Shown piece by piece: positions 3,527 to 23,192 of a DNA stretch of 41,102 nucleotides. Position 1 is the stretch's first letter. Each line of letters begins with the position of its first letter. Source of the DNA: a virus; UHGV virus genome UHGV-0210063; one strand, 5' to 3'. Both the position numbers and the translations under genes were made by a program. The notes beneath the pieces were generated by a model. That model saw only the letters and a program-made list of their open reading frames with translations, was not told the origin of the DNA and searched no databases.

Positions 3527-3601
<75 letters not shown>

Positions 3602-3604
3602 ATA

Positions 3605-3680
<76 letters not shown>

Positions 3681-3716
3681 ATCAAGTAGCGCGCATTCTA
3701 ATCGCGTGGCCGAAAT

Positions 3717-3801
<85 letters not shown>

Positions 3802-3809
3802 GGACTTGA

Positions 3810-3885
<76 letters not shown>

Positions 3886-3887
3886 AC

Positions 3888-3964
3888 TGGACCGCCACCG
3901 GGGACTCGAACCTCGCACACTCAACTTAAAGGGTTGACGCTCTTTCCTGATGAGCTAGTGGCGG
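3888..3964 (-). tRNA. Atypical tRNA-like gene, anticodon loop CCUUUAA (UUU anticodon, C at position 33)
   Basis: 77 nt; perfect 7-bp acceptor stem C1-G72, D-arm with GG, 5-bp anticodon stem, TTCGAGT T-loop, CCA; non-canonical C33 and one T-stem mismatch. Confidence 0.5.
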
Positions 3965-3965
3965 C

Positions 3966-4041
3966 TGGTGGCCCTTGCTGGATTTGAACCAGCGACCTGG
4001 CGATTATGAGTCGCTCGCTCTCACCACTGAGCTAAAGGGCC
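3966..4041 (-). tRNA. tRNA-Ile2 (anticodon CAU, ileX-like; elongator Met not excluded)
   Basis: 76 nt; closely resembles E. coli ileX as recalled, anticodon loop CUCAUAA. Confidence 0.8.
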
Positions 4042-14682: not shown

Positions 14683-17109
14683 ATGAGCACTGATAAAGAA
14701 GAATTTGCACTATATTGCGAAGCAAAAAATGACAAAGTAAGAAAACGCCTGGGAATTAAAGGTGGTTTTTACTGGACTACAGCAAAAAAATTATCTGTTG
14801 CAATCTCCCGCTGCATTACCGCAATGGATGACAACGATTATGATGAAGACGACTTTAAAAAACCCGTCCGCGTCAATTTGCCCGTTGTTGACGACCTTCC
14901 GCCAGAAGGCGTGTTTGATACTGAATTCTGCAACCGCTATGAAAAAGGCGGGAAAGATGGCATCACAATGACATTTATCGGCCCTTCCCCCTCTGTTCAG
15001 GACAAACCAGCCAGCACTGACAATACCAACATCAACGGCGAAGACATGACTGAGATTGAGGAGAGCATGCTTCTGCCTGTCTCCGGTCAGGAACTGCCCA
15101 TTCGTTGGCTTGCTCAACACGGCAGCGAAAAACCAGTAACGCACGTTTCACGCGACGAACTCCAGGCATTACACATTGCACGGGCTGAAGAACTACCGGC
15201 TGTTACTGCCCTGGCTATTTCGCATAAAACCAGTCTGCTCGACTCGCTGGAGATTCGCGACCTCCACAAACTGGTTCGTGACACTGACAAAGTTTTCCCT
15301 AATCCTGGTAATTCAGACCTGGGACTAATAACTGCTTTTTTCGAAGCATACCTGGACGCTGACTACACTGATCGGGGGCTGCTGACAAAAGAGTGGATGA
15401 AAGGAAATCGTGTTTCACGCATCATCCGCACGGCTTCCGGTGCTAATGCTGGCGGTGGGAACAAAACCGATCGCAATCCGAATTTAGTACACACCCTAGA
15501 CACACTGGATGTGGAGATTGCAGCAGCCACACTTCCGATGGATTTTAATATTTATGAAATTCCGGGCAGCGTTTATCGTCGCGCAAAAGAAGTAGTCCTG
15601 AAAAAAGAAAGTCCGTTCAAAGAATGGTCCGCAGCACTTCGTGCAACCCCGGGTATTCTGGACTATTCCCGCGCCGCTATTTTTGCACTTATCCGAAGCG
15701 CACACCCTGAATTTTATCACTACCCGGGACGCCTTCAGGGGTATATCAACGCCTATTTGACGGAAACTGATCACGAGAACCCCAGCAAGGAAACTCTCAC
15801 AGCTGCCCGGCATACGCCGGAAAAAGATATCCTGGAAGAAATTAACCGCGAGGTGGTTACTGAACGTGAAACAGAAGAAGAAAAACCACAACCATCTGAC
15901 GCAATGGCAGGTGAACAGGCAACAACTGAAACAATGGAACCGGCTACAACTGAACATTGCCAGAACGCTCAGTCGCAGGTGAGTTCCGCTAACCAAGTAA
16001 AAGTCACCGCTGACGAAGTAAACAAAATTATGCAGGCAGCCAATATCAGCCAGCCTGACGCCGATAAGTTACTTGCTTTATCGCGTGATGAATTTGTTGA
16101 GGGGATTAGCGACCCTAATGATCCGAAATGGGTCAAGGGGATCCAGACTCGCGATTCTGTGAACCAGAACCAGCATGAATCGGAACGGAACGACCAAAAA
16201 GCGGAACAAAACAGCCCAAATGCGTTACAAAACGAGCCAGAAACGAAACAATCCGAACCAGTAGCGCAACAGGAACCGGAAAAAGTCTGCACCGCCTGCG
16301 GTCAGAGCGGTGGCGGCAACTGCCCTGATTGTGGCGCGGTGATGGGCGACGCAACATACCAGGAAACATTCGATGAAGAGAATCAGGTTGAAGTTCAGGA
16401 AAATGATCCGGAGGAAATGGAAGGCGCTGAACATCCACACAAGGAGAACCCTGGCGGCAATCAGCATCACGCCAGCGATAATAAAACTGGCGAGGCGACA
16501 GATCCCTTAATTAAGGTGAATGGTCATCATAAGCTCACATCCACCAGCAGAGCGGGGATTCATCTGATGATCGACCTTGAAACCATGGGAAAAAATCCCG
16601 ATGCCCCGATTATCTCAATAGGCGCAATATTTTTCGATCCACAAACCGGAGATATGGGACCGGAATTTAGCAAGACCATCGATCTGGATACTGCTGGCGG
16701 AGTCATTGATCGTGACGTCATTAAATGGTGGCTGAAGCAATCACGTGAGGCGCAGTCTGCCATTATGACCGATGAAATCCCGTTAGATGATGCACTACTG
16801 CAATTGCGGGAATTTATCGACGAAAACTCCGGTGAATTTTTTGTTCAGGTCTGGGGTAATGGGGCCAACTTCGACAACGTGATTTTACGCCGTTCATACG
16901 AACGACAGGGTATCCCCTGCCCGTGGCGCTACTGCAACGATCGCGATGTACGCACAATCGTTGAGCTGGGGAAAGCCATAGACTTCGATGCCAGAACTGC
17001 TATCCCATTCGAAGGTGAGCGCCATAATGCACTTGATGACGCTCGTTACCAGGCAAAATACGTTTCAGCTATCTGGCAAAAACTGATCCCGAGTCAGGCT
17101 GATTTTTAA
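14683..17109 (+). CDS. Large early protein with C-terminal DEDDh (DnaQ-like) 3'-5' exonuclease domain (prophage 'exonuclease VIII-like' family)
   Basis: 808 aa; C-terminus HLMIDLETMG...WGNGANFDNVIL...HNALDDARYQAKY; acidic middle region with CTACGQSGGGNCPDCGAV zinc ribbon; upstream of xis/int. Confidence 0.6.
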   Translation: MSTDKEEFALYCEAKNDKVRKRLGIKGGFYWTTAKKLSVAISRCITAMDDNDYDEDDFKKPVRVNLPVVDDLPPEGVFDTEFCNRYEKGGKDGITMTFIGPSPSVQDKPASTDNTNINGEDMTEIEESMLLPVSGQELPIRWLAQHGSEKPVTHVSRDELQALHIARAEELPAVTALAISHKTSLLDSLEIRDLHKLVRDTDKVFPNPGNSDLGLITAFFEAYLDADYTDRGLLTKEWMKGNRVSRIIRTASGANAGGGNKTDRNPNLVHTLDTLDVEIAAATLPMDFNIYEIPGSVYRRAKEVVLKKESPFKEWSAALRATPGILDYSRAAIFALIRSAHPEFYHYPGRLQGYINAYLTETDHENPSKETLTAARHTPEKDILEEINREVVTERETEEEKPQPSDAMAGEQATTETMEPATTEHCQNAQSQVSSANQVKVTADEVNKIMQAANISQPDADKLLALSRDEFVEGISDPNDPKWVKGIQTRDSVNQNQHESERNDQKAEQNSPNALQNEPETKQSEPVAQQEPEKVCTACGQSGGGNCPDCGAVMGDATYQETFDEENQVEVQENDPEEMEGAEHPHKENPGGNQHHASDNKTGEATDPLIKVNGHHKLTSTSRAGIHLMIDLETMGKNPDAPIISIGAIFFDPQTGDMGPEFSKTIDLDTAGGVIDRDVIKWWLKQSREAQSAIMTDEIPLDDALLQLREFIDENSGEFFVQVWGNGANFDNVILRRSYERQGIPCPWRYCNDRDVRTIVELGKAIDFDARTAIPFEGERHNALDDARYQAKYVSAIWQKLIPSQADF

Positions 17110-17167: not shown

Positions 17168-17371
17168 ATGAGCAGCTTATTTTTAACCGAAGATGAATTG
17201 CTAATATTAACGGGCTGCAAATATGCAAGCCACCAGCGAAAATGGTTAATGGAAAACGGGCTTCCGTTCTATACCAATCGTAGTGGCAAACCGATTGTCA
17301 GCCGGGATCTATTTACCTGCAATAAAACTTTACCACCACGCGAGGTAGAGCCGAATTTTGGTGCGATCTGA
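17168..17371 (+). CDS. xis: Putative excisionase (DUF4224-like)
   Basis: 67 aa directly upstream of and overlapping int start; LTEDELLILTGCKY...NRSGKPIV pattern. Confidence 0.55.
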   Translation: MSSLFLTEDELLILTGCKYASHQRKWLMENGLPFYTNRSGKPIVSRDLFTCNKTLPPREVEPNFGAI

Positions 17372-18396
17372 TGGGAAGACGAAGGAAAAATCCTGAACAC
17401 GAAAAATTACCTCCAAATGTATACCCAAATAAATATAGTTATGTATGGAAACCAACATCCAGAGAATCTGTCACACTAACCGCCATCAAGGATGGTTTAG
17501 CTGCTTTATGGAAAAAGTATGAGGAAACTGTAAATAATCGCGATCGTGCAATGACATTCGGTCGCTTGTGGGAAAAATTCCTCGCCAGCGCCTATTACAG
17601 TGACCTTAGTCCAAGAACACAAAAAGATTATCTGCAACATCAAAAAAAGTTGCTTGCCGTATTCGGTAAGGTACCAGCGGATTCCATAAAACCAGAACAC
17701 ATCCGTCGATACATGGACAAAAGAGGGGAGCAGAGTAAAACGCAAGCCAACCATGAAAAAAGCAGTATGTCCCGTGTTTACAGTTGGGGGTATGAGCGAG
17801 GGTACGTCAAGGCTAACCCATGTGCAGGTGTAAGTAAATTCAAGGCCAAAAACCGCGAACGATATGTAACCGACAAAGAATACCAGGCAGTATTAAGCGT
17901 TGCACCTCTTCCTGTTTTTATCGCAATGGAAATTGCCTATCTGTGTGCAGCGAGGGTTTCCGATGTGTTATCGCTGAAATGGGAACAGATTGGAAACGAC
18001 GGGATATTCATCCAGCAAGGGAAAACCGGAAAAAAACAGATAAAAGCATGGAGTCCACGATTACAGGCAGCGATCGAAAAAGCAAAACAGTTACCAAAAT
18101 CTGCCTATGTGATCAGCAATCAATACGGCAACCGATATATGTACAAAGGCTTTAACGAAATGTGGGTAGAAGCAAGAAATCGTGCTGGAAAAATTTCAGG
18201 TATTTTAACCGACTTCACCTTTCATGATCTGAAGGCGAAAGGAATTTCAGACTATGAAGGAAGCAGCCGGGATAAGCAACTTTTCTCTGGTCACAAAACC
18301 GAAGGGCAAGTGCTAATCTATGACAGGAAGGTTAAAGTTTCACCAACACTTGATGTCCCGTTACCTGAAAATATTCCAAGAAAATATTCCAAGTAA
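17371..18396 (+). CDS. int: Tyrosine-type site-specific integrase
   Basis: 341 aa; C-terminal catalytic region (HDLKAKG...GHKTEGQVLIYDRK); adjacent to tRNA-Ser fragment. Confidence 0.85.
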   Translation: MGRRRKNPEHEKLPPNVYPNKYSYVWKPTSRESVTLTAIKDGLAALWKKYEETVNNRDRAMTFGRLWEKFLASAYYSDLSPRTQKDYLQHQKKLLAVFGKVPADSIKPEHIRRYMDKRGEQSKTQANHEKSSMSRVYSWGYERGYVKANPCAGVSKFKAKNRERYVTDKEYQAVLSVAPLPVFIAMEIAYLCAARVSDVLSLKWEQIGNDGIFIQQGKTGKKQIKAWSPRLQAAIEKAKQLPKSAYVISNQYGNRYMYKGFNEMWVEARNRAGKISGILTDFTFHDLKAKGISDYEGSSRDKQLFSGHKTEGQVLIYDRKVKVSPTLDVPLPENIPRKYSK

Positions 18397-18448: not shown

Positions 18449-18510
18449 TGGCGGAGAGAGGGGGATTTGAACCCCCGGTGGAGTTGCCCCCACTCCGGTT
18501 TTCGAGACCG
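18449..18510 (-). other. attP core: 3' ~62 nt of a tRNA-Ser (serU-like, CGA anticodon arm onward)
   Basis: Minus strand reads ...CGGTCTCGAAAACCGGAGTGGGGGCAACTCCACCGGGGGTTCAAATCCCCCTCTCTCCGCCA; 5' half of the tRNA absent. Confidence 0.7.
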
Positions 18511-18809
18511 ATGATACAGAGTCGAAAAATCAAAGAGTTAAAAACTTTTCTTGGAATAAATGTCTTAAAATCGTACACGAAAAATCAATAAATTACATAA
18601 CATTAAAGAAGAATATTCCAAGCCTTCTTGAGGCCACCACCTGTTTTCAGGTGTCATTCAGACGTGATTTACCCCAGATTGGGTAAGCACGCTTTTTTTC
18701 TCAGCTTATTCCGTTTTGCCTGTGTGTTGAATAATTCCACTGCAGTTATATAAAATCGGTAACGGCTGGAAATCATTCAATACTCGCACTATCGAAAGTT
18801 AACCAGCCA

Positions 18810-18856
18810 GCCGCAGTATCCTATCATGACAAGTTACTGCGGCTTTTTACTTTTTA
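18810..18856 (+). terminator. Hairpin with T-run (candidate terminator)
   Basis: CCGCAGTA ... TACTGCGG 8-bp stem followed by CTTTTTACTTTTT. Confidence 0.4.
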
Positions 18857-18859
18857 TAT

Positions 18860-19147
18860 TTAACGGATCAACATCCAGATCAGCAGACACGCCACCACCG
18901 GCACAGCAAAATCCATCAGGCTTGCCACATCCCACACGCGCGGATCAAAACCGCCCCACCACGGCATGTTAATCCTCTTGCCATGCCCAAACATTTCAAT
19001 CCAGCGATATTCTGCCTGGGTGTGTTCACGCGCAATGAAGAACGTACAACCGGCTATCGCACCGTAAGCCCAGTTTCCGGTAAAAAGGCCAATCAGTACC
19101 TGCGCAGCCACAGCACAAAGCGCATGAAGAAAAGGTGTTATATCCAT
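18860..19147 (-). CDS. Small inner-membrane protein, function unknown
   Basis: 95 aa with at least two hydrophobic helices; last gene before attP. Confidence 0.55.
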   Translation of the reverse strand: MDITPFLHALCAVAAQVLIGLFTGNWAYGAIAGCTFFIAREHTQAEYRWIEMFGHGKRINMPWWGGFDPRVWDVASLMDFAVPVVACLLIWMLIR

Positions 19148-19157
19148 TACTCCTCCT

Positions 19158-19862
19158 TTATCCGATATCGCTTCGGGAAACGGATAACAACTTTAACTCT
19201 GACTCAAGTTCATCAACTCTTTCAGTCAGTTTCTGGATATGGTGAATCAGTGGAACAACCAGACGTTCGTACATTACACCTTCGGCAACAAGGCCATTGC
19301 TGGAAATGGTTTCCGGTGCATCATCTTCGTTGGCTGGTCGCCAGTGAACAAACTGAGGGGCAATTTCTCCAACTTCCTCGGCAATCAATCCATAGAATCC
19401 CCAGTCACGCCTGTCATTTTCGCATTGCGACCTGTACCACACAGGGCGCATCCTGAAAATGAGATCGGCGTGCTCTGAATCTATTGTCTCTACTGAATGT
19501 TTATAGCGGATAGATGATGTTGACCGCAGTACAGACGAAATTGCGGGGTCAGGATTAAGATAAAGGTTTGCCGCCGCTGTAGTCGTGGCCAAATTCCATA
19601 AATAAAACGCTTCACGACCTGTCAGTGGATAAAAATCTCCGCCATAACGACCACTTTCCAGATCGTTCACTTCCACTTTGTTTTTCAGCTTATTATCAAC
19701 TTCAGTTTTTGTGTATCTGGTGCTGATATCCTGCTTTGCACTGGTCATATCAGTCTGAAGCGTTGATACTTTTCCGTTAATTGAGGAAATCTCTTCCTTA
19801 GTTTTACTGACATCTCCCTTTAGCGTGGTGATATCTCCTGGAATTACTGTCGATGTAGCCAT
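19158..19862 (-). CDS. Tail-fibre-like protein with C-terminal intramolecular chaperone (peptidase S74-like) domain
   Basis: 234 aa; coiled-coil N-terminus; C-terminal pattern LRSTSSIRYK...WGFYGLIAEEVGEIAPQFV...YERLVVPLIHHIQKLTERVDELE. Confidence 0.45.
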   Translation of the reverse strand: MATSTVIPGDITTLKGDVSKTKEEISSINGKVSTLQTDMTSAKQDISTRYTKTEVDNKLKNKVEVNDLESGRYGGDFYPLTGREAFYLWNLATTTAAANLYLNPDPAISSVLRSTSSIRYKHSVETIDSEHADLIFRMRPVWYRSQCENDRRDWGFYGLIAEEVGEIAPQFVHWRPANEDDAPETISSNGLVAEGVMYERLVVPLIHHIQKLTERVDELESELKLLSVSRSDIG

Positions 19863-19871
19863 TTGTCTCCC

Positions 19872-20153
19872 TCACATCCAGCCACGAAGTTGATGCTCAA
19901 CAACAACCGCGTATTTATCGAATATTGACGATTTTTTTGCATCATTAATGATGCGCACGTTTACAAAATATCCGTCTTCCTTAACACATACCGGTTCGCC
20001 ATCTTCAGTCAGTTCTCCGGTTTCTTTGTACACGTTACCTATCACGTCAATAAGAATATTATCCTGCATCGACTCGTCATCATAATAGCCAGTGCTCTCC
20101 ATAAAGGCCGAAAAGTCGGCCCTGTCTGCAAATTTGAGTGTTAAATCTTTCAT
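19872..20153 (-). CDS. Hypothetical protein (93 aa) translationally coupled to stf
   Basis: Start overlaps stf stop; acidic; sits where tfa would be. Confidence 0.45.
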   Translation of the reverse strand: MKDLTLKFADRADFSAFMESTGYYDDESMQDNILIDVIGNVYKETGELTEDGEPVCVKEDGYFVNVRIINDAKKSSIFDKYAVVVEHQLRGWM

Positions 20154-22534
20154 TAGATTGACTCCCCCACCTGAGCATCAGTCAATGCCTTGTGCCATAT
20201 TCTGAAATTCCTGACATGACCAAATAAATGACGTAACCCGGCAGTAGTCTGGCCTCCAATACGGATAATTGCGGTGTTCTGAATACAGGACCATGTGGTT
20301 TTTGTTTCGCTGGATATACGCCCGTTACTTACTGAGCACGTAGACTGATCTGACTTTACACGCATCCCCATAACCATTTTTTCAAGCGATGCGTTTTCGT
20401 TTACCCGTCTGTTAGCTCCTCCAATATCGCAATAAGGAAATCCGTCGTAATCTGTTGAACGACCGAAGCCAAGAATAATAGCCGCTCCGGTTTGATGACC
20501 GCCGGTGTCAAAAACACGCGGAGCTGCATTTGGCGTTTTATACCAGTTCTTATGTACCTCACAAAGAACCGTAAAAGGAAGATTATAAAGATTATTCTTA
20601 ATGGGAACTGTAACTATATCGCTTGCGCGGGTCGCCGCCGTCGTTCCTGATATAATAAAAGATGATACACAAGGCCCATTTTCTACTTGTGGGGTGGCCA
20701 GATAAATATAGTCACCAGATACGGTTGCCCCGCCCTGCTTAGGAGAATACTGTATCTGAGAACCTATTTTTAACTCCCCATCAATTGCCTGAATTGTTGC
20801 CTCTGCAAAAATCCATCCGGTAGCTTCGTCCTTTCTGACTCTCGCAGTAATCCTTGAGGCAGCACCGCCTGTCATATTAATTTCAAGCGTTTGTGTATCA
20901 ATATACGCATCACCAAGAAAAGTTGTTGCGCTACCGTCATATTTATCAAACCGGATACGCAACCTTACCTGCAGTTCTGTTTTAAAACGACATGAGGTTG
21001 TCACGTGTTTATTATCGCCTGAGACATCAACTGACTTTGTTGCAGCAATTGATGCCATATTAATGGCTGAGGTTTGCCCAATCAGAGAATCGTTGCAGAC
21101 AAACTTTCCATAGGTAAAACCAAAACTATCCGTCCCTGTTTCGGGCACATCCATATTTGACGATCGCCCCCAACTGGCAGGGTTTTCCGAATTGAGCATG
21201 TAGTTTGTTCTTTGCCCCTCAATAAGCAGGCCATCACGTTCAAACCGTGGCTCGTCAATGGCAGCCTCTGTCAGCACACCAGATTTATTAATGTAAGTTG
21301 CTTTTGATGCGCGTTTAAACTTTACAACCTTATCGCCAGGCATCGTTATTTCATCATCACCAATAACAATCTTTTTATATGACGGCGAAAAGCCCGTAAT
21401 CATATCCAGTGAATCGTTAAACGGTATCCACACATCGGGAAGCGGCTGCAATACTTGTTTATACGGCTCCGCAGCCTGGCTTGCATACTCTCTGGCTGCG
21501 TCTTCACTTGCTTTTGCAGCCGTCTGGCTTGCAGCGGATGCTTTCGCCGAGTTAGCCGCCGCAGTCTCGCTCGCCTTTGCGTTGGTTTCACTGGTTTTTG
21601 CAGCTTTTTGACTGTTGGCTGATGCAGTGGCAGAAGCAGCCGCCGCGCTTGCAGAACCAGCTGCAGCACTCTCGCTTTGGGCTGCTGCATCCTGACTGTT
21701 TTTCGCCGCAGTTTCGCTGGCTTTGGCATTCGTTTCGCTGGTCTTCGCTGCCGTCTGGCTGGACTTTGCGTTAGTTTCACTCGTCTTCGCAGCTTTCTGG
21801 CTGTTAGCCGCAGCAGTTGCTGATCCAGCTGCTGAAGTCGCAGAACCGGCTGCCGCGCTCTCGCTTTGGTCTGCTGCAACCTGGCTGTTTTTTGCCGCAG
21901 TTTCACTGGCTTTGGCATTCGTTTCGCTGGTTTTCGCTGCCGTCTGGCTGGACTTTGCGTTGGTTTCGCTCGTCTTTGCGGCTGTCTCGCTATTTTTCGC
22001 GTTGGTTTCTGATTTTTTGGCTGCTGTCGCGGAGTTTGCCGATGCAGTCTTTGAGGTCGCTGCCGCCTGTGCACTATTAGCTGCATTCGTTTCTGAGGTT
22101 TTCGCCGCGTTCTTCGATGATGCCGCTGCAGTTTCGGATTTCTTTGCCGCCGCTGCGCTCTGAGAGGCGGCTTCAGCGTTGCGTGCCGCTTCTTCCACCA
22201 TTTCCTCAAAACGACGCAATGCCTCCGGCATGACATCATCTTCCGTCATGGCACCGAGAAAATCATTCAGCGTACCTGGTCTGGAGCCTTCATAGACGGT
22301 AATGGTCCCGGCATGTGAAGGCGGAAAACCTTCAACCAGCAGGGTGACGCTGTACTGGCCATACTCAACATCCATGCTGTAACGCCCGGCTTCATCAGGA
22401 TTTTCAGAGGCCACCGTGTTCACCAGTACCGTGGTGCTGTTACGCTTTGCCTTCAGTTGAATAGTGCAGTTCTGTATTGGTTTTCCCGCACCATCTTTCA
22501 GCACACCTGAGATTTTTACTGCTGCCATATCCAC
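20153..22534 (-). CDS. stf: Side tail fibre protein (Stf-like) with repetitive Ala/Ser/Thr-rich shaft
   Basis: N-terminus nearly identical to lambda Stf (AVKISGVLKDGAGKPIQNCTIQLKAKRNSTT...); internal SETNAK repeats; divergent C-terminal receptor-binding region. Confidence 0.85.
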   Translation of the reverse strand: MDMAAVKISGVLKDGAGKPIQNCTIQLKAKRNSTTVLVNTVASENPDEAGRYSMDVEYGQYSVTLLVEGFPPSHAGTITVYEGSRPGTLNDFLGAMTEDDVMPEALRRFEEMVEEAARNAEAASQSAAAAKKSETAAASSKNAAKTSETNAANSAQAAATSKTASANSATAAKKSETNAKNSETAAKTSETNAKSSQTAAKTSETNAKASETAAKNSQVAADQSESAAAGSATSAAGSATAAANSQKAAKTSETNAKSSQTAAKTSETNAKASETAAKNSQDAAAQSESAAAGSASAAAASATASANSQKAAKTSETNAKASETAAANSAKASAASQTAAKASEDAAREYASQAAEPYKQVLQPLPDVWIPFNDSLDMITGFSPSYKKIVIGDDEITMPGDKVVKFKRASKATYINKSGVLTEAAIDEPRFERDGLLIEGQRTNYMLNSENPASWGRSSNMDVPETGTDSFGFTYGKFVCNDSLIGQTSAINMASIAATKSVDVSGDNKHVTTSCRFKTELQVRLRIRFDKYDGSATTFLGDAYIDTQTLEINMTGGAASRITARVRKDEATGWIFAEATIQAIDGELKIGSQIQYSPKQGGATVSGDYIYLATPQVENGPCVSSFIISGTTAATRASDIVTVPIKNNLYNLPFTVLCEVHKNWYKTPNAAPRVFDTGGHQTGAAIILGFGRSTDYDGFPYCDIGGANRRVNENASLEKMVMGMRVKSDQSTCSVSNGRISSETKTTWSCIQNTAIIRIGGQTTAGLRHLFGHVRNFRIWHKALTDAQVGESI
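21540..22150. repeat. Tandem imperfect repeats inside stf (about 46-aa units)
   Basis: Repeated AAKTSETNAKSSQTAAKTSETNAKASETAAKNSQ...SESAAAGSA blocks at protein and nucleotide level. Confidence 0.7.
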
Positions 22535-22540
22535 TCCACA

Positions 22541-22572
22541 AAAAAGCCCGCCTGAACCGGCGGGCTGTCATA
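22541..22572 (-). terminator. Terminator downstream of lom
   Basis: Minus strand GCCCGCCGGTTCAGGCGGGC hairpin followed by TTTTTTGTGG. Confidence 0.55.
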
Positions 22573-22592: not shown

Positions 22593-23192
22593 TCAGAATT
22601 TATAACCGACACCCACGATGAAACCGTCAGTGCGCCAGTCACCACTGCCGGAGCCTTCATAAGCAATATCAATGGCCACGGATTCGGTCGGGTTAAACTG
22701 CACGCCAGCCCCCCACGCCAGAGACGTGTTGCTGTGGCGACCGTCATCACTTCCGGTCAGCACATCGTGCGTTTTCCCCTTGCTGTCAGTTACGCGGAGA
22801 TAATCCCCGGAAAAAGTCGAAACACGGCTGTAAGCCACACCTGCCATCGCATAAGCACTGAACCATTCATTCACGCGTACAGATGGCCCCGCCATCATGC
22901 TGAACCAGCGGTTACGCACGGAATCTTCATGCCAGCGGGTATCGCTGTAATGCGTTTTTTGCTCATCTTTGGCATTGGCATAACTGAATGACGTCACCAG
23001 CCCCAGCGTGTCCGTAAATTCATAACGGTATTTCACGTTAATGCCCTTCAGGTCATCACTGCCTGGCATATCAGTATGGGTCTGAAGATACCCGGCGCTT
23101 AGTGTGGACTGATGCTCTGCTGCGCTCGCTGGCGTACCAGCGGCAACCAGCCAGACTACTGCGGACAGAATAACAGCACATAATTTACGCAT
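22593..23192 (-). CDS. lom: Outer membrane protein Lom (Ail/Lom family)
   Basis: 199 aa with signal peptide and beta-barrel pattern ending GVGYKF; flanked by hairpin terminators. Confidence 0.9.
   Translation of the reverse strand: MRKLCAVILSAVVWLVAAGTPASAAEHQSTLSAGYLQTHTDMPGSDDLKGINVKYRYEFTDTLGLVTSFSYANAKDEQKTHYSDTRWHEDSVRNRWFSMMAGPSVRVNEWFSAYAMAGVAYSRVSTFSGDYLRVTDSKGKTHDVLTGSDDGRHSNTSLAWGAGVQFNPTESVAIDIAYEGSGSGDWRTDGFIVGVGYKF

Follow-up and report, generated by a model that had tools for sequence, protein, structure and literature searches.

What takes the place of the tail fiber assembly gene, tfa, when a lambdoid side tail fiber gene, stf, is not followed by one? The virus genome UHGV-0210063 raises this question. 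Between stf and the phage attachment site, attP, this stretch of 41,102 nucleotides (nt), referred to in full as the window, carries three short genes that encode proteins of 93, 234, and 95 amino acids (aa). The answer developed here, which we consider probable, is that they form the distal part of a modular, horizontally moving side-fiber locus with four parts: a main fiber with an exchangeable tip, a fixed partner of that tip, a very small second fiber, and a membrane protein that may act on the host envelope.

Three genes after stf

According to the list of open reading frames (ORFs), the three genes all lie on the minus strand, tightly packed 3' of stf; lom (22593-23192) and then J lie upstream of stf. 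The features that matter for the argument are as follows.

20153..22534, minus strand: stf, 793-aa side tail fiber (ORF, Pfam, PHROG, and PDB match)
20156..21445, minus strand: stf C-terminal domain of ~430 aa, residues 364-793, PLPDVWIPFNDSLDM ... RNFRIWHKALTD (cross-phage identity)
19872..20153, minus strand: 93-aa acidic protein, phrog_1361 (TAATG overlap with stf, family context)
19158..19862, minus strand: 234-aa protein, candidate minimal second (branch) fiber with an S74 chaperone (PF13884, phrog_3299, phrog_454)
19818..19862, minus strand: its N-terminal motif MATSTVIPGDITTLK, residues 1-15 (conserved among second fibers)
19725..19832, minus strand: its predicted coiled coil, residues 11-46 (sequence reading; similarity to Lpp and P22 gp26)
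19161..19517, minus strand: its S74 intramolecular chaperone domain, residues 116-234 (alignment, PDB profile matches)
18860..19147, minus strand: 95-aa three-helix inner-membrane protein, phrog_1443, function unassigned in PHROGs (AlphaFold2, gene contexts)
18929..19030, minus strand: its conserved polar loop, residues 40-73 (family conservation)

Base 20153 is common to the stf stop codon and the start codon of the 93-aa gene (TAATG, a 1-nt overlap). The other two junctions measure 9 to 10 nt (10 nt between the 234-aa and 95-aa genes), with the ribosome-binding sites GGGAG and AGGAGG. These are real genes and not chance ORFs. Each protein has a large family of homologues, and in comparison with phage IdasGreatGrand the ratio of nonsynonymous to synonymous rates (dN/dS) is 0.43 for the 93-aa gene and 0.20 for each of the other two, that is, synonymous change prevails; purifying selection evidently acts on all three.

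An earlier note on this DNA, made from the letters alone, had outlined a three-gene cluster running from stf to attP. Its coordinates proved exact, and the attachment site was confirmed by the 3' end of serU beside int. The absence of tfa after stf, also claimed there, holds as well, as none of the three proteins matches Tfa (Caudo_TAP) in Pfam or NCBIfam. The region was further described as moderately AT-rich, which is true of the 93-aa gene (41% GC) and the 234-aa gene (44.5%) but not of the 95-aa gene (52%, against a window mean of 50.4%). In the literature, only general accounts of lateral-fiber loci were found, and no functional studies of the three proteins.

A main fiber with a mobile tip

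Residues 5-134 of Stf are the lambdoid virion-attachment domain (Pfam phage_tail_N, E=7e-67); residues 5-97 match the tail fiber protein in PDB entry 9e7m, and the protein matches phrog_1419 along its full length. The shaft that follows is repetitive and rich in Ala, Ser, and Thr, with 189-nt tandem repeats at 21557-21991 (2.3 copies). The C-terminal ~430 residues, which match the NCBIfam domain GTA_spike_fiber ("GTA head spike fiber") with E=7.6e-14, are 50 to 98% identical in the fibers of lambdoid phages, Drexlerviridae (swan01), Tequintavirus (FGS017), and Nonagvirus (ESCO3). The N termini of the fibers that share this domain are lineage-specific and mutually unrelated. The domain thus has the appearance of a mobile tip cassette, and it is presumed to be a glycan-binding, receptor-binding domain. 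No S74 domain and no Tfa family was matched in Stf by Pfam or NCBIfam.

Two observations on the gene itself may be added. The shaft region (21400-22240) also gives rise to spurious ORFs of considerable length (279 aa, 146 aa) in other frames of both strands, and the homologous stf of strain EC21GDE043 is annotated as broken pseudogene pieces.

The 93-aa protein goes with the main fiber

The 93-aa protein had been described as acidic and coupled to stf, and both points stand: its pI is 4.4, with 19 Asp and Glu residues against 10 Lys and Arg, and the coupling is the TAATG overlap. By translated search, members of the family were located in 181 phage records, which belong to six lineages (lambdoid, Drexlerviridae, Dhillonvirus, Queuovirinae, T5-like, and rV5-like), and the gene abuts a fiber gene in 40 of 40 listed records of these 181. 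In lambdoid phages, ESCO3, swan01, and FGS017, a homologue of ~90 aa, with overlapping stop and start codons, lies 3' of the stf-type domain.

Which of the two fibers does it serve? The earlier note had suggested that the region may hold a second short fiber with its chaperone, which would make the 93-aa protein the chaperone of the 234-aa protein. S74 proteins bring their own chaperone domain. At least four lambdoid phages (mEp460_4F5, 1H12, ev017, and Perceval) keep the 93-aa gene without a second fiber, a ~92-aa gene being followed directly by the membrane-protein gene. In ESCO3 and HannyBb, the stf C-terminal domain is 98% identical to that of the window and the small protein 90 to 91%, while the second fiber is only 27 to 28% identical; in PhiR55_1, the corresponding values are 50%, 33%, and 94%. 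The 93-aa protein therefore diverges in step with the stf C-terminal domain in the majority of comparisons, though not in all. Because it abuts the stf-type C-terminal domain, mostly co-diverges with it, and persists where the second fiber is absent, the 93-aa protein is best assigned to stf and not to the short fiber. Of the proposed "second short fiber with its chaperone," the fiber survives (see below) and the chaperone does not.

The position, coupling, and co-inheritance of the gene, and these only, suggest that its product is a dedicated partner of the stf C-terminal domain, either an assembly factor or an accessory that stays bound at the tip, and that it replaces Tfa. The likeness to lambda Stf/Tfa consists of a small coupled gene directly 3' of the fiber gene and co-inherited with the C-terminal domain of the fiber. 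Unlike Tfa, the 93-aa protein is acidic, about half the size, and without sequence similarity to Caudo_TAP. The protein and seven relatives gave no match in Pfam, NCBIfam, or PDB, profile search included, and the protein has no match among the defense models of PADLOC-DB. Proteins of 71 and 72 aa encoded 5' of the membrane-protein gene in Enterobacter and Comamonas were considered as possible counterparts and are unrelated to it.

A probable minimal second fiber

What, then, is the 234-aa protein? Its residues 116-172 cover positions 1-57 of the 58-position Pfam model Peptidase_S74 (PF13884) and score 26.7 bits (cut-off, 22 bits; E=7e-6). A profile of its family finds, in PDB, the C terminus of DT57C LtfA (1.8e-11), MYRF ICA (auto-processing domain; 5e-8), S16 gp37 (1.4e-7), and the GA-1 gp12 chaperone (0.04). 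Ser116 and Lys121 are invariant in both alignments of its relatives (A1 and A7); in the alignment with chain 3gud of the GA-1 chaperone (SDERHK), Ser116 falls on residue 1 and Lys121 on the Lys. The coiled coil and S74 domain named in the earlier note are thus both there, as are the two catalytic residues on which it had in part let the assignment depend. By these criteria of homology the protein is a true S74 intramolecular-chaperone protein, predicted to cleave itself on the N-terminal side of Ser116 with Lys121 as the base. It has in common with endosialidases, T5 pb1, and GA-1 gp12 the match to PF13884, the Ser-x4-Lys dyad, the C-terminal helix, and the position at the C terminus of a fiber.

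In the 234-aa protein, the S74 domain likewise sits C-terminally, after a coiled coil of five unbroken heptads whose a and d positions are I11, L14, V18, T21, I25, I28, V32, L35, M39, A42, and I46. The segment is weakly similar to the trimeric coils of Lpp and P22 gp26, and the protein is probably trimeric. Classical S74 clients have a long triple beta-helix or a beta-propeller before the chaperone domain, whereas only a ~45-aa tip lies here between the coiled coil and Ser116.

The case for a fiber comes from the family. The second-fiber gene lies directly 3' of the 93-aa gene in twelve phages: the lambdoid IdasGreatGrand, HannyBb, and PhiR55_1; ESCO3 (Nonagvirus); swan01 (Drexlerviridae); FGS017 (Tequintavirus); and, with adjacency taken from coordinates, tuinn, G3B1, JK16, tonn, JenP2, and 2G7b. 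Alleles of 224, 227, 343, 351, and 581 aa are found at this locus. They share their first ~15 to 20 residues, with the consensus M-A/V-T-x-T-V-I-P-x-D-I-x-x-L-K, and the S74 domain, and are otherwise 25 to 28% identical. A conserved tag, a variable middle, and a chaperone in cis make up the pattern of exchangeable receptor-binding proteins mounted on a common platform. The tag, MATSTVIPGDITTLK in the window, may be a docking peptide for the unit formed by Stf and the 93-aa protein. Is the short form an accident? Because short homologues of 221 to 234 aa exist at 55 to 61% identity, it can be argued that it is functional; among the homologues 231 aa long are named proteins of ~50-kb coliphages, which belong to Drexlerviridae wherever the taxonomy was seen. 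The interpretation of the 234-aa protein as a second short fiber is thus supported. A comparison with PADLOC-DB gave a chance-level, CorA-like match (E=0.019).

Two other explanations have been considered for this protein. It might be no fiber at all but an assembly factor acting in trans, which templates trimers of the stf C-terminal domain. Such a factor would suit an Stf that has neither an S74 domain nor Tfa, and a 234-aa protein with almost nothing between coiled coil and chaperone domain and a pre-cleavage tip that is conserved and not variable. Annotators have also favored it: the BASEL label is "putative lateral tail fiber chaperone," and the proteins of PeterMerian, KarlJaspers, HMD-P4, and VogelGryff are annotated as chaperones. 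However, phages with the same type of stf domain and a 93-aa protein exist that have no such gene, and the alleles of HannyBb, ESCO3, and FGS017 (343 to 581 aa) carry 100 to 350 extra residues between motif and chaperone and are read as real fibers. S74 domains, moreover, are not known to act other than in cis. We consider this explanation unlikely.

Far less credible still is a decaying, functionless remnant of a longer fiber that lost its receptor-binding middle: the whole protein does align to the last ~240 of the 1385 positions of phrog_3299 and to the C termini of other long fibers, and longer alleles do occur at the same locus, but the frame is intact under the low dN/dS given above, neither the catalytic Ser nor the Lys has been lost, 742 of 5426 complete Escherichia coli genomes (C41(DE3) included) contain the gene at 90 to 100% identity, and some of the short homologues are found in virulent phages, which shed dead genes before long.

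The 95-aa membrane protein

The last gene of the cluster had been said to encode an inner-membrane protein, which agrees with the hydrophobic sequence and with a confident AlphaFold2 model of three helices (residues 4-23, 26-53, and 74-94; mean predicted local distance difference test score [pLDDT], 93.4). The protein ends in ...LLIWMLIR, without a charged tail. Its family comprises 570 clusters at 90% identity. At 50% identity, a profile search of 1.84 billion representatives found 427; the best 150 of the 427 are all 66 to 146 aa long, and none is fused to another domain. The protein has no match in Pfam, NCBIfam, or PADLOC, and no Pfam family emerged from 66 divergent relatives, one of which gave a weak Phage_holin_8 match (E=0.0036). 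Fold searches returned generic helical bundles only.

Where, then, might the function reside? The polar loop, residues 40-73 (REHTQAEYRWI..FG.GKR.NMPWWGGFDPR.WD), is conserved far above the membrane helices, and H8, R40, E41, Q44, E46, W72, and P83 are retained even in relatives at 30 to 40% identity. The mean number of Lys and Arg residues is 5.45 in this loop and below 1 in every other nonmembrane segment. Because the positive-inside rule assigns such a loop to the cytoplasm, the predicted topology is N-in/C-out, which would put the conserved site on the cytoplasmic side of the membrane. The idea of a lipoprotein was dropped, as the lipobox-like IAGC at residues 31-34 loses its Cys34 to Ala or Ile in the wider family.

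The company that the gene keeps is more telling. In several phage types, it lies directly 3' of, and often overlaps, the final gene for a receptor-binding protein or Tfa. It follows the fiber genes in lambdoid phages (the window and many "Lambda_ev" isolates), a pectate-lyase spike in a Citrobacter lambdoid prophage, and a 939-aa S74 fiber in a P2-like prophage of Leclercia; P2-like prophages of Enterobacter belong to this group as well. In P22-like JEP4, the order is tailspike, 95-aa homologue, int; in Halomonas phiHAP-1, the gene lies between Tfa and the sheath gene, and in an Ackermannviridae genome of 160 kb, between two tailspike genes. The family is also present in Aeromonas jumbo phages.

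Some of these records deserve comment. The 160-kb Ackermannviridae contig is Kuttervirus-like and filed under a Salmonella assembly (homologue at 5001-5297 of contig L011), and in the related phage KFSST3 a stretch matching the Ackermannviridae membrane-protein gene was left unannotated. On the chromosome of Aeromonas rivipollensis (contig L008, 6001-6309), a 59%-identical homologue is flanked by the genes for pirin and RIO1 kinase, and its surroundings are free of phage genes, which suggests that the host captured a phage gene, or the reverse. A further stand-alone copy has toxin-antitoxin, Fic, and transposase genes as its neighbors. The stand-alone copies fit a cell-autonomous protective function, as does the position beside attP.

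The attachment site and transcription signals

Two further features lie beyond the membrane-protein gene.

18449..18510, minus strand: attP core, the 3' 62 nt of K-12 tRNA-Ser(CGA) serU with two substitutions (alignment)
18809..18844, either strand: 10-bp GC-rich hairpin, 16 nt past the 95-aa stop codon (fold energies)

The two substitutions in the serU segment, A to G and T to C, fall in the variable arm and keep its pairing. The xis and int genes (17168-18396, plus strand) converge on the segment, partial matches to which are present in 5416 of the 5426 E. coli genomes; Rfam matches here are tRNA-like and subthreshold.

The earlier note had placed a terminator after the 95-aa gene. A strong hairpin is indeed there (z-scores of -3.9 on the minus strand and -2.8 on the plus strand), but the T-run that follows it (18845-18858, TTTTTACTTTTTAT) does so on the plus strand only, and a pattern scan called no canonical terminator on the coding (minus) strand past the gene. 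As a terminator, it has canonical form only for RNA transcribed from the int side. The hairpin lies ~410 nt past the int stop codon, beyond the attP core, a layout that we take to be that of the tI/sib retroregulation site for lambda int. Integration would separate it from int.

At the other end of the operon, in the gap between lom and stf, lies an intrinsic terminator (22545-22566, minus strand), with an 8-bp GC-rich stem followed by TTTTTT. In the absence of Q-type antitermination, transcription from lom should stop there, before the fiber operon.

When and where the membrane protein may act

Is the 95-aa gene expressed with the fibers or from the prophage? A simple consensus scan found no sigma-70-like promoter on the minus strand 5' of the gene. 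Because the gap to the preceding gene is 10 nt, no promoter is seen on its strand, and a terminator separates lom from stf, the gene appears in the window to be a late gene, co-transcribed with the fiber genes. This position, together with the copies in virulent phages, argues against a purely prophage-expressed conversion gene.

The strongest competing proposal is nonetheless of that kind, namely, a classical lysogenic-conversion moron, expressed from the prophage, that changes the surface or excludes related phages. Here as in JEP4, attP and int come right after the gene, P2-like prophages carry the homologue in the slot after the fiber genes, stand-alone chromosomal copies exist, and its 52% GC is unlike that of its two neighbors. 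Against this stand the lack of a coding-strand promoter in the scan, gaps or overlaps of just 4 to 10 nt with the preceding late gene, the isolation of the operon from lom transcription by the lom/stf terminator, the occurrence of the family in virulent Ackermannviridae and Aeromonas jumbo phages, and the lack of a PADLOC match. We find the proposal doubtful. A lysis-timing protein (holin, antiholin, or similar) is very improbable: a small three-helix membrane protein would suit the role, as would the weak Phage_holin_8 match in one of the 66 relatives and a Comamonas prophage in which the homologue precedes two small membrane proteins and a 183-aa protein (possibly a muramidase, a guess from the look of its sequence that no search backs), but in all other contexts the gene follows receptor-binding genes, away from the lysis genes, which in lambdoid, P22-like, and P2-like phages normally lie elsewhere; its neighbors here are fiber genes and attP; no holin family matched the window protein; the charged C-terminal tail is missing; the polar loop is highly conserved, unlike holins, which are poorly conserved in sequence; and stand-alone copies exist on Aeromonas chromosomes.

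What remains is an envelope-acting accessory of receptor use, most likely in the form of exclusion or of modulation of a polysaccharide pathway. This is a possibility to which we give some weight, though short of expecting it, and the role in lysogenic conversion or exclusion suggested by the earlier note is a plausible guess. Conversion and membrane genes follow receptor-binding genes in a number of phages; examples are P22 gtrABC, Sf6 oac, the epsilon15 O-polymerase inhibitor, P2 Z/fun, T5 llp, and phi80/N15 cor. In P22, gtrABC lies in the slot before attP, which is the last-gene position here, and in P2, Z/fun takes the slot after the fiber genes. The 95-aa gene resembles this group in its slot, as the last of the receptor-binding block beside attP and int, and in encoding a small envelope protein. 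It differs in showing no homology to the group by Pfam, NCBIfam, or PADLOC, in its apparent late co-transcription, in its copies in virulent phages, and in a conserved site predicted to be cytoplasmic.

How the four parts may work together

The model that we favor starts from what is established, namely, the reality of the genes, the identities of the domains, the catalytic dyad, the membrane fold, the modular linkage, and the distribution. What we infer is that docking and cleavage take place, and what the 93-aa protein and the membrane protein do. Stf joins a lambdoid attachment domain and a repetitive shaft to a mobile, probably glycan-binding tip cassette. The 93-aa protein would be its fixed, coupled partner, aiding the folding or assembly of the stf domain or staying bound to it. 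The 234-aa protein would be the smallest of the branch fibers, in which residues 1-15 dock, residues 11-46 trimerize, and ~45 residues make up the tip. Its S74 domain would drive the folding of the trimer and then cut before Ser116, leaving a 115-residue stub on the main fiber. The 95-aa protein would be made together with the fibers and affect a conserved function of the host envelope that is connected with the use of receptors, likeliest by excluding incoming phage or by altering the supply of surface polysaccharide.

Several points weigh against this model. (i) The association of the three proteins is known here from their genes alone. (ii) A mature stub of 115 residues leaves little room for a receptor-binding domain, and its conserved tip is unusual for a receptor-binding protein. 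(iii) The 93-aa protein does not follow the stf domain without exception: the IdasGreatGrand values are 59% identity for the domain and 83% for the small protein. (iv) The AlphaFold2 model of the 93-aa protein, built on a shallow alignment of 29 sequences (the relatives returned were all at least 82% identical), is unusable, with a pLDDT of 38.5. (v) Sequence and fold searches detected no likeness of the 95-aa protein to known exclusion, conversion, or lysis proteins. (vi) A site facing the cytoplasm is unexpected for a protein that masks receptors. (vii) The Comamonas arrangement, with the homologue beside small membrane proteins and the 183-aa protein, would fit a role in lysis if the muramidase guess held.

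A bolder version makes a proposal for each of the two uncharacterized families, independently of each other; we put it forward tentatively and would not expect it to hold. The 95-aa family would represent unrecognized, widespread, receptor-gene-linked inner-membrane proteins with a new exclusion or receptor-remodeling function, and the 93-aa family a new class of assembly or junction proteins. The site formed by H, R-E, Q, and E would act on some conserved envelope step of the host, possibly on a step of polysaccharide assembly linked to undecaprenyl phosphate (Und-P) or on a component of DNA entry; its function would serve many types of phage as well as the bacteria that captured the gene. 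The 93-aa protein would allow one tip cassette to be plugged into lambdoid, T1-like, T5-like, 9g-like, and rV5-like virions.

Comparison with branched tail fibers

The closest known arrangement is that of the T5-like phages DT57C and DT571/2, in whose branched, L-shaped tail fibers LtfA carries LtfB (PMC4728585, PMC10713586). The likeness lies in adjacent fiber genes whose second product is thought to hang on the first, and in fibers devoted to O-antigen recognition and subject to cassette exchange (PMC4728585, PMC10713586). In both cases, the second protein ends in an S74 domain, autocleavable in LtfB and predicted to be cleaved here, and the C termini of LtfA and LtfB are homologous to that of the 234-aa protein. 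The differences are nevertheless considerable. LtfA has an S74 domain of its own, and Stf does not; no small gene separates ltfA and ltfB, where the 93-aa gene intervenes here; and LtfB, at 767 aa, has a large receptor-binding part, against the 115 mature residues predicted here. The LtfB of DT571/2 starts with MSRNLMPKSGAMAPYVV (MSRNLMPKSG...), and its BLASTP similarity to the 234-aa protein is confined to the chaperone domain, so that the N terminus of the 234-aa protein shows no homology to the LtfB/phiEco32 gp15 docking region. A junction of the LtfA/LtfB type was ruled out on account of the differing N termini, the intervening small gene, and the S74 domain of LtfA.

Distribution and other features of the window

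How common is this arrangement? At least 80% of the 1.7-kb cluster is present in 696 of the 5426 complete E. coli genomes (about 13%). The 95-aa gene alone reaches 1906, with a median of two copies, Nissle 1917 included. Strain EC21GDE043 contains a 100%-identical prophage end adjoining zinT. The names given by PGAP to the 93-, 234-, and 95-aa proteins are "hypothetical protein," "tail fiber domain-containing protein," and "hypothetical protein." The cluster is thus an ordinary, widespread fiber module of the kind "branched fiber with S74 chaperone," two of whose three components belong to common but uncharacterized families.

Elsewhere in the window, six tRNA genes are clustered at 3527-4041 (minus strand: Gly-TCC, Thr-TGT, Tyr-GTA, Thr-TGT, Lys-TTT, and Met-CAT), an unusually large set for a 41-kb lambdoid genome. 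A very acidic ORF of 808 aa lies 5' of xis (14683-17109, plus strand); its long N-terminal part is without obvious assignment, and its HannyBb homologue is annotated as an exonuclease.

What the locus means for phages and hosts

Which O-antigen types a coliphage can get through is decided by its side and lateral fibers, and engineering of host range draws on the cassettes of these fibers as raw material. The present locus suggests a plan in which a tip cassette, found in temperate as well as virulent phages of five lineages or more, has the 93-aa protein as its fixed partner and can take up a second fiber that plugs in by a 15-residue N-terminal tag. Should the inferred docking rule hold, the tag would be a simple handle by which receptor-binding proteins could be swapped or added. 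The 95-aa family, found in about one-third of complete E. coli genomes and unnamed in databases, is an inexpensive and well-defined candidate whose function, if new, may lie in exclusion or in modification of the envelope. As to kind, nothing here is surprising; what is gained is the definition of three protein families, common yet uncharacterized, each with a testable hypothesis.

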